A stretch of DNA of 64,000 nt from Candidatus Nomurabacteria bacterium (GTDB lineage Bacteria; Patescibacteriota; Minisyncoccia; Phycocordibacterales; UBA9973). Below are positions 22,268-23,910 of this stretch, piece by piece (position 1 is the first letter of the stretch; every line of letters begins with the position of its first letter). The position numbers were made by a program, and so were the translations under genes. The stretch is taken from contig CALRHR010000001.1 in the NCBI GenBank assembly GCA_943359485.1, positions 51,141 to 115,140 on the forward strand, read 5' to 3'. The notes beneath the pieces are model-generated. The model searched no databases and had not been told where the DNA came from. It saw only the letters and a list, made by a program, of their open reading frames with translations.

Positions 22268-23910
22268 TAGTTAGAGTTTGATCCTAGCTCAGGATGAACG
22301 CTGGCGGCGTGGATAAGGCATGCAAGTCGAACGAATAGTTCCATGAAAGTTTGAAAGACTTTGAGTAGCAATACAAAAAGAATTAATAACTGGATTGGGT
22401 TTGCTATTAGTGGCGAACGAGGTAGTAATACATAGGAACTTCCCCCGAAGTCGTGAATAATCCATCGAAAGGTGGACTAATACACGATGGTCTCGCAAGA
22501 GTAAAGTTTTAACGCTTCGGGAAAGGCCTGTGCGATATCAGCTAGTTGGTAAGGTAATGGCTTACCAAGGCTATGACGTCTAGGGGAGGTGAGAGCCTGA
22601 CCCCCACCGATGGTACTGAGACACGGACCATACACCTACGGGTGGCTGCAGTCGAGAATCTTCCACAATGGACGAAAGTCTGATGGAGCGACGCCGCGTG
22701 ATTGATGAAGACCCTATGGGTCGTAAAGATCTTTTATGAGGGAACAAGTTTATTGACTGTACCTCATGAATAAGAGGCTCCTAATCTCGTGCCAGCAGGA
22801 GCGGTAATACGAGAGCCTCGAGCGTTATCCGGAATTATTGGGCGTAAAGGGTGCGTAGGTTGTTCTGTTAGTCTTTTGTTAAAGCCCCGAGCTTAACTTG
22901 GGATACGCGAAAGAAACGGCAGAACTTGAAAGTGTGAGAGGCGTACGGAACTCATGGTGTAGGGGTGAAATCCGTTGATATCATGGGGAACACCAAATGC
23001 GAAGGCAGTACGCTGGCGCATATTTGACACTGAAGCACGAAAGCGTGGGTAGCGAATGGGATTAGATACCCCAGTAGTCCACGCCCTAAACGATGATCTC
23101 TCGCTATTCGGAGTATCGACCCTCTGAGTGGCTTAGCTAACGCGTTAAGAGATCCGCCTGGGAAGTACGGCCGCAAGGCTAAAACTCAAAGGAATAGACG
23201 GGGACTTGCACAAGCAGTGGATTATGTGGTTTAATTCGATGGTAAACGAAGAACCTTACCAGGGTTAGAAATTCTAGTGCAAGGTCTAGGAAACTAGATC
23301 CCTCGCAAGACTCTAGAACAGGTGATGCATGGCCGTCGTCAGTTCGTGGTTTGAATTGTACCCTTAAGTGGGCTAACGAACGCAACCCTCGTTGTGTGTT
23401 ACAAGTGTCACACGAGACCGCCTCCGACTAAGCGCACGAAGTGCGCAGGCTCTAGGAAACTAGGCTTTAGGCTTTAGCAAAATACAAAATTGCTAGCGCC
23501 TAGTGTCTAACGCCTAATGCCTGCGAAGTAAACTTCGCGAATTTAGTCGGGGGAGGAAGGAGAGGATGACGCCAGGTCAGCATGTCCCTTTGATACCCTG
23601 GGCTACACACATAATACAATGGCCATTACAACGCGTTGCGACGAGGCGACTCTGAGCTAATCGTTTAAAAATGGCCTCAGTTCGGATTGAAGGCTGCAAC
23701 TCGCCTTCATGAAGCTGGAATTGCTAGTAATCGCAGGTCAGCTAAACTGCGGTGAATACGTTCTCAAGTCTTGTACTCACCGCCCGTCAAGTCAAGGGAG
23801 CTGGGAGTACCCGAAGTCTCCACATAAGTGGGGCCTAAGGTAAGCTCAGTGACAGGGACTAAGTCGTAACAAGGCACGGCTAGCGGAAGCTGGTCGTGGA
23901 ATAATTCAAT
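22268..23910 (+). rRNA. rrs: 16S ribosomal RNA with ~115-nt expansion insertion; 3' end divergent and lacking the CCUCC anti-SD
   Basis: Starts AGAGTTTGATCCTAGCTCAG and contains the universal blocks GTGCCAGCAGGAGCGGTAATAC and AAGTCGTAACAAGG. The h45 GGAA loop is present, but the 3' tail reads GGAATAATTCAATT instead of GGATCACCTCCTTA. An insertion sits at about 23411-23545. Confidence 0.9.

Follow-up and report, generated by a model that had tools for sequence, protein, structure and literature searches.

Is the long insertion in the 16S rRNA gene of a Candidatus Nomurabacteria genome a peculiarity of that gene, or does it belong with the hairpins scattered between the protein-coding genes of the same genome? 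We addressed this question in a stretch of 64,000 nucleotides (assembly GCA_943359485.1, contig CALRHR010000001.1, positions 51,141 to 115,140 of the forward strand), referred to throughout as the window, whose own numbering is used below. The 16S gene of the window carries a 121-nt insertion in the apical loop of helix 40 (h40), and the central hairpin of this insertion, hairpin B, is a member of a family of intergenic hairpins whose arms are built from 7-nt units containing TAGGC. A dispersed repeat family and an rRNA expansion coincide in this genome. We consider it rather probable that hairpin B is a homologous copy of this structured hairpin family, which resembles the repetitive extragenic palindromic (REP) elements, and that it was copied into the h40 loop.

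Hairpin B of the 16S insertion is a member of an intergenic hairpin family

The features of the 16S gene that bear on this question are as follows; R1 denotes the covariance model described below, MFE the minimum free energy, and L-numbers designate loci from other genomes.

22266 to 23911, plus strand: 16S rRNA gene (Rfam RF00177, SSU_rRNA_bacteria, 1346.9 bits, model positions 1-1533)
23428 to 23548, plus strand: insertion of 121 nt in the h40 apical loop (variable region V7, 3' major domain), written as a [121] insert in the cmscan alignment
23421 to 23431, plus strand: 5' strand of the extended h40 stem, pairing with 23543-23553 (MFE fold)
23543 to 23553, plus strand: 3' strand of the extended h40 stem (MFE fold and compensatory changes)
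23432 to 23446, plus strand: hairpin A, GCGCACGAAGTGCGC (GCGCAC-GAA-GTGCGC; MFE fold)
23447 to 23522, plus strand: hairpin B, the central TAGGC heptad hairpin of 76 nt (fold and R1 score)
23523 to 23538, plus strand: hairpin C, GCGAAGTAAACTTCGC (GCGAAG-TAAA-CTTCGC; MFE fold; kept in L040 and L016)

The original prediction had described an insertion of roughly 115 nt in the 3' major domain of the 16S gene, with two short flanking hairpins and a long imperfect hairpin. Alignment of the 3' half to the Rfam model bears out this description: the 121 inserted nucleotides lie opposite just 3 h40 loop nucleotides (model positions ~1158-1162), and an 11-bp extension of the h40 stem bears the long imperfect hairpin B between the short hairpins A and C. 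The arms of hairpin B have a period of 7 nt, with YTAGG(C)NN units in the 5' arm (AGGC-TC-TAGG-AAAC-TAGGC-TT-TAGGC-TT-TAGC) and NN(G)CCTAR units in the 3' arm (GCTA-GC-GCCTA-GT-GTCTA-AC-GCCTA-AT-GCCT), and they enclose an A-rich loop. For the entire insert the fold energy is -71.1 kcal/mol (z = -8.1), a value equalled by none of 200 dinucleotide shuffles, and hairpin B alone folds at -32 kcal/mol (z = -4.6).

The same 121-nt module is conserved at the same 16S position in L040, a Paceibacterota metagenome-assembled genome (MAG) with 95% identity in the flanking 16S sequence, and in L016, where flank identity is about 85-87%. Across the three sequences, 98% of the cells are paired and four pairs have changed on both sides, three of them in the h40 stem and one in hairpin B, demonstrating that the three-hairpin fold is conserved with compensatory changes. 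Hairpin A is invariant in all three.

To avoid circularity, R1 was built without any 16S copy, from 61 intergenic elements that all come from other genomes. A search of the window with filters off matched exactly four sites, at 11494, at the 16S hairpin, at 51629 and at 5503, with the next best match at E = 0.5. The 16S hairpin scored 55.3 bits on the plus strand and 56.5 bits on the minus strand (E ~1e-15). It is 92% identical to the intergenic element L066:1897, the arms of the two being identical over ~45 nt, and blastn matches it to intergenic elements in L011, L068 and L071 at E ~1e-12. Tandem arrays of at least three YTAG or CTAR units occur 6 times per strand of the window versus ~0.2-0.3 expected from Markov simulations, and a joint pattern (two TAGGC units, TAGC, a loop, GCTA and GCYTA) occurs at 11503, 23461 and 51638 and in none of 100 shuffles. 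The predicted kinship between the 16S hairpin and the intergenic hairpins is thereby established beyond chance.

Six further loci had been proposed to carry the same arm motifs. Three of these, at 5497-5582, 11491-11563 and 51621-51700, are family members, with R1 E-values from 1e-8 to 3e-18 and the following placement among the open reading frames (ORFs) of the window:

11491 to 11563, plus strand: family member filling the gap between rpmF (L32) and nusB-NUDIX (R1 66.3 bits, E 3e-18; Pfam of the flanking ORFs)
51621 to 51700, plus strand: family member between two type IV secretion system (T4SS) pilin paralogues (R1 56.1 bits; Pfam; fold)
5497 to 5589, minus strand: diverged member with TAGGT/TAGGG units in the gap between nrdA-like and nrdB-like genes (R1 35.5 and 32 bits, E 1e-8; Pfam; fold)

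The remaining three do not belong to the family. At 3743-3767 there is only (GCTAGATT)x3, which lacks an inverted partner and does not fold significantly; the locus at 27525-27557 is an unremarkable perfect hairpin without an R1 match; and 36448-36475 is a short hairpin with an R1 E-value of 6.7. Rfam searches at the gathering threshold and at E<=1 returned no family on any of the hairpins. Six T4SS-pilin (PF18895) paralogues are arrayed at 49655-52488, and the TAGGC hairpin of this array lies between the fourth and the fifth. A PaaX-middle/Cas2-like ORF at 3122-3697 is followed by the (GCTAGATT)x3 repeat at 3744-3767.

The 16S gene of the window stands alone, with no adjacent 23S gene, enolase upstream and an ORF without a Pfam match downstream. 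It has a second insertion in the h6 region (22339-22403, 65 nt versus 14 in the model), which folds weakly and lacks heptad periodicity. A 16S trailer hairpin, TATTGTGTCGC...GACGACACAATA, at 23978-24010 is kept in L040 at ~675-707, with a compensatory C-G to A-U change between the two. ARAGORN places a tRNA-Pro(CGG) at 25820-25892 for which the Rfam tRNA model gave no match, even with the threshold relaxed to E<=1.

Distribution, gene context and structural signature of the family

The joint pattern was scanned over one genome per GTDB species; all of the sequences are metagenome assemblies, and the distribution figures are samples. At least 109 loci were recovered, where ~3 chance matches are expected from the information content of the pattern. 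All but ~8 of them lie in Patescibacteria or unclassified bins, and ~90% of the at least 100 family loci lie in Patescibacteria MAGs. Among the matches listed, the hosts are Nomurabacteria, Paceibacterota, Uhr-, Kaiser-, Doudna- and Berkelbacteria and bins labelled Saccharibacteria, and the family thereby extends to dozens of genomes related to that of the window, several of which give many loci each. The family is borne by a subset of Patescibacteria (Paceibacteria/Parcubacteria). In the viral collection, the pattern was found in only one contig, IMGVR_UViG_3300037308_000582, which has two intergenic TAGGC-type hairpins, so that phages are no evident reservoir. This contig is Mu-like (Mu portal, Mu F, GH108 lysin), and its hairpins lie at 1814-1854 (L230) and 2597-2651 (L231). 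As far as text searches show, the full-text literature holds no published description of TAGGC heptad hairpins under their unit strings or under repeat and hairpin terms for the candidate phyla radiation (CPR).

The 102 extracted elements share one plan: 3-5 (occasionally 8 or 17) YTAGGCN units, an innermost TAGC, a 5-20-nt loop, GCTA, and N'GCCTAR units, giving lengths of 50-90 nt or longer. Arm order is fixed, with 89 hairpins TAGGC-array-first versus 0 GCCTA-array-first, and the loops are 54% A in the sense direction. Two members have unequal arms, L001 (7107-7273) with 17 right-arm units and L029 (4558-4659) with 8 left-arm units, which indicates that uncompensated heptad slippage does occur in the family.

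With ORFs called by a longest-ORF heuristic, only 2 of 103 elements overlap an ORF. Co-directional ORFs surround 70 of the 87 elements that have an ORF on both sides, and the median element starts 5 nt after the upstream stop and ends 9 nt before the downstream start. The hairpin of the rpmF-nusB junction is shared with L010, L032, L036, L043, L060 and L068, with variation in unit number and loop. Pfam scans of the ORFs on either side of 67 elements identified the following recurrent junctions:

L32 and NusB-NUDIX: seen 7 times
NusB and RNase III: seen 4 times
PrgI and VirB4/TraG-type ATPase: seen 4-5 times
EF-Tu and S10 (tuf and rpsJ): seen 2 times
L23 and L2: seen 2 times
L10 and L7/L12: seen 2 times
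SSB and S18: seen 2 times
ScpA and ScpB: seen 2 times

Because many elements are orthologous, these counts overstate independent events, and clustering was applied to the key test, that of the rungs between the paired blocks. Members fold into 5-bp TAGGC/GCCTA helices, and between consecutive helices lie one Y·R rung of the wobble type and one N·N' mismatch. The base preceding TAGGC in the 5' arm is C in 146 cases, T in 115, G in 7 and A in 1, and the base following GCCTA in the 3' arm is A in 156, G in 110 and C in 3. The rungs beside the blocks comprise 126 C·A, 86 U·G, 28 U-A and 20 C-G (212 non-Watson-Crick versus 48 Watson-Crick); 82% are non-Watson-Crick versus 51% expected from the marginals (Fisher p = 1e-24), and the bias persists after collapse to 22 clusters at 88% identity (p = 7e-7). 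Non-Watson-Crick rungs are in the majority in 71 elements and the reverse is true of 3, while the N:N' position is Watson-Crick in merely 13.5% of cases. The four rungs of the window's 16S copy are U·G, U·G, C·A and C·A.

Since the rung positions were left free in the search pattern, this bias is no ascertainment artefact. Bases that are correlated 20-60 nt apart indicate that the hairpin really forms, and the direction of the correlation indicates that a wobble-type rung is favoured over a Watson-Crick pair. U·G and C·A+ pairs are isosteric. Taken together, the C·A/U·G covariation, the period of 7 and the fixed polarity point to recognition of the folded shape.

Several known kinds of element were considered and rejected. 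Intrinsic terminators do not fit, as no T run follows the hairpins: T makes up 27% and A 39% of the 15 nt that come next on the sense strand. HutP-like UAG-N4 sites, integron attC sites and DNA uptake sequences match the family neither in distribution nor in sequence boxes. Restriction avoidance of CTAG does not apply, because CTAG is not depleted in the window (163 observed versus 160 expected). Tandem interspaced guide RNA (TIGR) arrays consist of tandem ~36-nt units with box C/D motifs beside a Nop-domain Tas gene (PMC12045711), whereas the TAGGC hairpins are built from 7-nt units and occur singly, dispersed between housekeeping genes.

The closest analogues are the REP elements and bacterial interspersed mosaic elements of Enterobacteria and Pseudomonas (PMC3733652), which are multi-copy imperfect palindromes in transcribed intergenic DNA, near stop codons and of fixed polarity, and which are supposed to act on mRNA stability, termination or translation. 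The TAGGC hairpins are likewise multi-copy imperfect palindromes in transcribed intergenic DNA, near stop codons and of one internal polarity, and a similar action on mRNA is suspected for them. REPs, however, are 20-40 nt long with a GTAG/CGTC tag, whereas the CPR hairpins are tandem heptads of 50-90 nt or more with a foot of (A)CAGGC...GCCTA and no tag; they also differ in their orthologous junctions across species, their C·A/U·G rung covariation and their copies within rRNA genes. We know of no REP-associated tyrosine transposase (RAYT) for the CPR hairpins. Unlike miniature inverted-repeat transposable elements (MITEs), each TAGGC element is one hairpin, with no distinct terminal inverted repeats, no target-site duplication and no parent insertion sequence seen. 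Of the REP/MITE-like label originally proposed, the MITE part is therefore unsupported, and the tag and length of a REP are missing as well.

Copies in rRNA genes and the hypervariability of h40

The genome of L040, whose 16S gene holds the module of the window, has five further element-bearing loci, and the window itself has 3 intergenic copies. TAGGC hairpins also occur in 23S gene regions, at L011 7830-7884, directly after model position 2632, and at L034 2467-2533, between model positions 2453 and 2655. These copies adjoin or fall within the intron-rich domain V zone, and the zone after position 2632 is known for CPR introns. The 16S gene of L016 has an extra insertion of ~867 nt (595-1462) near its 3' end, between window 16S positions 1515 and 1516, which probably represents a known CPR intron.

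A metagenome scan with the h39 signature of the clade returned at least 120 16S contigs (L110-L229), whose h40 segments fall into size classes of 9-17 nt (40 contigs), 40-70 nt (~40) and 97-295 nt (~40). These results demonstrate that h40 is a hypervariable hot spot in this clade. Many long inserts keep the A-B-C plan with other units, namely TTAGCTG, GCTAGTG, GTAGTAG, GCTAAGA, TAGTTGG, AAAGTAN, AATTACG and AAATTCC. Significant tandem periodicity was detected in 21 of 37 distinct long inserts, with a period of exactly 7 in 19 of the 21 and units that are unrelated to one another; the heptad period itself seems to be a conserved property of h40 inserts. L152 carries the window's hairpin A beside a central hairpin with a different unit. 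R1 found no TAGGC element in the ~840 kb of the at least 120 related 16S contigs with non-TAGGC h40, which indicates that the family is lineage-restricted, and among the matches listed TAGGC-type h40 was seen only in lineages that have the intergenic family.

Ranked by the 3' domain outside h40, the nearest 16S relatives of the window among the matches listed are as follows.

L159, flank identity 98.7%: short h40 loop (54-61 nt) of unrelated sequence
L188 and L205, flank identity 98.2%: short h40 loops (54-61 nt) of unrelated sequence
L167, flank identity 97.6%: AATTACG-type heptad hairpin in h40
L132, flank identity 95.4%: h40 reading AAGCGCACGAAGC[GGAAAATTTTTTCC]GGCTTCGCGAATTT

The module is missing from 16S genes at 97-99% flank identity and present in relatives at 95% and about 85-87%. 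The h40 of L132 looks like an empty site, as it holds the window's outer sequence minus the inner part.

The 16S gene of L199 has two heptad hairpins, one at the tip of h17 and one at the tip of h40, that have an identical 35-nt stretch in common, and in L140, L162 and L214 related hairpins lie at two sites of, or beside, one 16S gene. When the k-mers of each lineage's own insert were sought elsewhere in the non-TAGGC lineages, hits were obtained in L199, L140 and L146 only, mostly in or near the 16S gene, in flanks of just 5-12 kb; a de novo scan for periodic hairpins gave the same outcome. The 16S genes of L199 (4048-6730, minus strand) and L140 (6557-9361) measure 2.7-2.8 kb, with ~1 kb insertions and, in each gene, two related heptad hairpins at the tips of different helices, and a group II intron domain match adjoins the 16S gene of L199.

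Origin, fate and possible role of the 16S copy

In the reading that we favour, a family member, or the whole A-B-C module, would have entered h40 by recombination or insertion at the DNA level, the h40 loop of this clade being presumably tolerant of long hairpins. The copy would be transcribed with the pre-16S rRNA and would form an arm of its own on the head of the 30S subunit. Selection acting on the folded nucleic acid would keep the family, most likely through a protein reader of the periodic wobble/mismatch pattern, with possible effects on mRNA processing, stability or translation coupling. The identical 35-mers of L199 argue for copying between sites, as independent slippage cannot produce them. 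Colonisation of rRNA, as first proposed for this locus, draws indirect support only, from the absence of the module at 97-99% flank identity, from the double hairpins of L199 and from the 23S-region copies. A partial parallel is provided by 5S rRNA expansion segments (Stepanov & Fox 2021, PMC7812874), which are bacterial, patchy and possibly horizontally spread, with similar motifs in intergenic regions of other genomes; unlike hairpin B, their motif has no further occurrence within its own genome, and the paper reports neither family statistics nor a heptad structure.

Several observations weigh against this reading. The TAGGC module is known in only three 16S genes among the matches listed, all of them from metagenome assemblies. 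No transposase, target-site duplication or terminal repeats were found among the window ORFs by Pfam or at the flanks of the copies: the Pfam scans of ~28 window ORFs revealed no Y1 transposase, and neither the 16S copy nor the two L199 copies nor the intergenic copies are flanked by a visible target-site duplication. Copies within a genome are hardly more alike than copies from different genomes (0.807 versus 0.785), and many copies are orthologous, so that they do not demonstrate recent mobility. The period-7 arms with other units in the h40 of other lineages indicate that slippage in situ can build such hairpins without import. In addition, the antisense strand folds better in 60 of 77 intercistronic elements and the sense strand in 17 (p = 1.5e-7), a consequence of C·A being commoner than U·G when the elements are read in sense; A-richness shortly before start codons may explain this C·A excess. 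A simple sense-RNA stabiliser optimised for stability was rejected, since the antisense folds are the stronger.

The similarity within and between genomes looks like that of long-lived constrained elements, not of a recent selfish-repeat burst. Together with the recurrent intercistronic junctions across species and the strong structural covariation, the low within-genome excess likeness speaks against a purely selfish repeat and fits a shared structural motif under selection. The repeat family and the shared structural motif, which had been offered as alternatives, both seem partly true.

An origin in situ would attribute hairpin B to growth of the h40 tip by compensatory replication slippage, in which short motifs gained on one arm are matched by complementary gains on the other, and the TAGGC unit that it shares with the intergenic hairpins to convergence under one mutational or selective bias. 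Hancock and Dover reportedly described such slippage in 1990 for the expansion segments of eukaryotic rRNA; those segments also expand helix tips, have arms that are complementary runs of short motifs and turn over rapidly, whereas the present case is bacterial, has a strict 7-nt period and shares its unit with non-rRNA loci. The frequent period 7 of h40 inserts with unrelated units and the slipped arms of L001 and L029 are what such a process would leave, and the h40 of L152, with TTAGCTG units and a weak R1 score of 18 bits beside the window's hairpin A, is compatible with gradual unit drift. We nevertheless judge this origin unlikely. The likeness extends beyond the unit to the foot (AGGC...GCCT), to the innermost TAGC/GCTA and to the long identity with the arms of L066; R1 gives the 16S hairpin its E-value of ~1e-15; among the matches listed, TAGGC-type h40 is seen only in lineages with the intergenic family; and the 35-nt identity at two helices of L199 requires duplication. 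That the repeat was misjoined into a 16S contig during assembly is extremely improbable: 16S genes and repeats are both assembly-prone in metagenomes, and L040 and L016 start inside the 16S gene, but three independent assemblies place the 121-nt module at one position, flanked on either side by 16S sequence and bearing compensatory substitutions, and dozens of other contigs have related h40 inserts with three hairpins.

The fate of the transcribed copy is a separate matter, for which the following features are relevant.

22234 to 22256, plus strand: leader half of a 23-bp stem around the 16S gene, pairing with 24107-24130 (duplex -29.9 kcal/mol, fully paired)
24107 to 24130, plus strand: trailer half of this stem (duplex fold)
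12551 to 13258, plus strand: rnc, encoding RNase III, the candidate enzyme for processing of long hairpins (Pfam Ribonucleas_3_3, Ribonuclease_3 and dsrm)

A group I or group II intron was rejected, as Rfam gives no match on 23428-23548 at E<=1 and 121 nt are too short for a catalytic core. Intervening sequences (IVSs) that RNase III cuts from rRNA are known in helices h25 and h45 of the 23S rRNA of Salmonella, Leptospira and others, with rare cases in 16S rRNA. By analogy, RNase III may cut the pre-16S rRNA in the extended h40 stem or in hairpin B, so that the insert is lost and the 16S rRNA is fragmented in the head, with the intercistronic copies as processing sites. This is a serious possibility, falling somewhat short of an even chance, and it is compatible with a copy-in origin. 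As in known IVSs, a long stem replaces a helix tip, its occurrence is extremely patchy among near-identical 16S genes, horizontal spread is suspected and the host has RNase III, here with a double-stranded RNA-binding domain. The 23-bp leader/trailer stem around the 16S gene is of the classical RNase III maturation type. A TAGGC hairpin lies directly upstream of rnc in four other genomes, reminiscent of rnc autoregulation, and none precedes rnc in the window. The differences from known IVSs lie in the site (16S h40), the three-hairpin junction, the periodically interrupted stem and the membership in a genome-wide repeat. Against excision stand the helices themselves, which are broken every 5-6 bp by apparently selected non-Watson-Crick rungs; periodic interruptions of this kind make a poor geometry for an RNase III substrate. 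Hairpins A and C are moreover conserved even between lineages with different B units, which suggests a role in the mature particle or in its assembly. We regard retention of the 16S copy as an expansion segment and its excision by RNase III as an IVS as about equally probable.

The short uncharacterised rRNA insertions of CPR bacteria (Tsurumaki et al. 2024, PMC11270868) come from the same organisms and are likewise ORF-less, non-intron and under 200 bp. The authors of that survey leave them unclassified, suggest that they may be IVSs and mention repeats or hairpins 0 times; the heptad architecture and the intergenic link are not described there (PMC11270868).

A very different role would be that of a binding module: one protein would bind both the rRNA hairpin and the hairpins in about 1 in 20 intercistronic gaps and couple the operons concerned to ribosome supply, in a lineage that does without Shine-Dalgarno pairing. 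The 16S 3' tail of the window, GGAAUAAUUCAAUU (23890-23911), lacks the CCUCC anti-Shine-Dalgarno, as do 90 of the 101 clade 16S genes with a readable tail among the L110-L229 matches listed, and loss of this motif was previously reported for a Parcubacteria subgroup (PMC9297842). Besides this absence, the view is favoured by the recurrence of the hairpins in operons for ribosomal proteins and translation (those concerned encode ribosomal proteins, EF-Tu, NusB, RNase III, ribonucleotide reductase (RNR) and pilins), by the wobble-isosteric covariation and fixed polarity, which point to a specific folded shape, and by hairpin ends at a median of 9 nt ahead of start codons. No candidate protein was identified, and the absence of the rRNA copy in very close relatives means that it cannot be essential; we consider such mimicry very unlikely. 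Just as improbable is the broader notion that the heptad hairpin is a recognition module common to the ribosome and to intercistronic junctions in a lineage without Shine-Dalgarno pairing. Under that notion, either a factor would bind the rRNA and mRNA copies and exert ribosome-coupled control of ribosomal-protein, tuf, nusB, rnc, RNR and pilin operons, or the arms of the rRNA hairpin would pair with those of the mRNA hairpins ~9 nt before starts and serve as a surrogate start-site selector. If it were true, heptad periodicity combined with selection for C·A/U·G rungs would mark out, throughout Patescibacteria, a new class of hairpin, in RNA or in DNA, that is read by a protein.

Cyanobacterial short tandemly repeated repetitive (STRR) sequences are intergenic heptamer repeats, and the RNA sites of the HutP type in Bacillus read UAG-N4-UAG, with UAG triplets 7 nt apart. 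Unlike in HutP sites, the UAGs of the present family lie in the paired arms of a hairpin, and other h40 lineages have units that contain no UAG. The TAACTGA heptamers of Beggiatoaceae, Cyanobacteria and Bacteroidetes (PMC4679880) are also 7-nt units a few nt before starts, in ribosomal-protein operons and with a suspected post-transcriptional regulator, but they are direct repeats without hairpins, have a different unit and have no reported rRNA copies.

These findings give an identity to part of the short uncharacterised insertions of CPR rRNA genes, some of which are copies of, or built like, a genome-wide hairpin repeat. The hypervariability of h40 (V7), with its inserts of 100-200 nt, has consequences for the design of 16S primers and probes, for chimera filters and for the recovery of 16S genes in MAGs of this clade. 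The family itself is a widespread structured element of Patescibacteria, undescribed as far as text searches show, at conserved intercistronic junctions of core operons, and its signature, which unites a 7-nt period, a fixed polarity and wobble-isosteric covariation of C·A with U·G, is both rare and statistically strong. As its hosts lack the anti-Shine-Dalgarno and are uncultivated, such elements are among the few handles on their operon expression and rRNA maturation.

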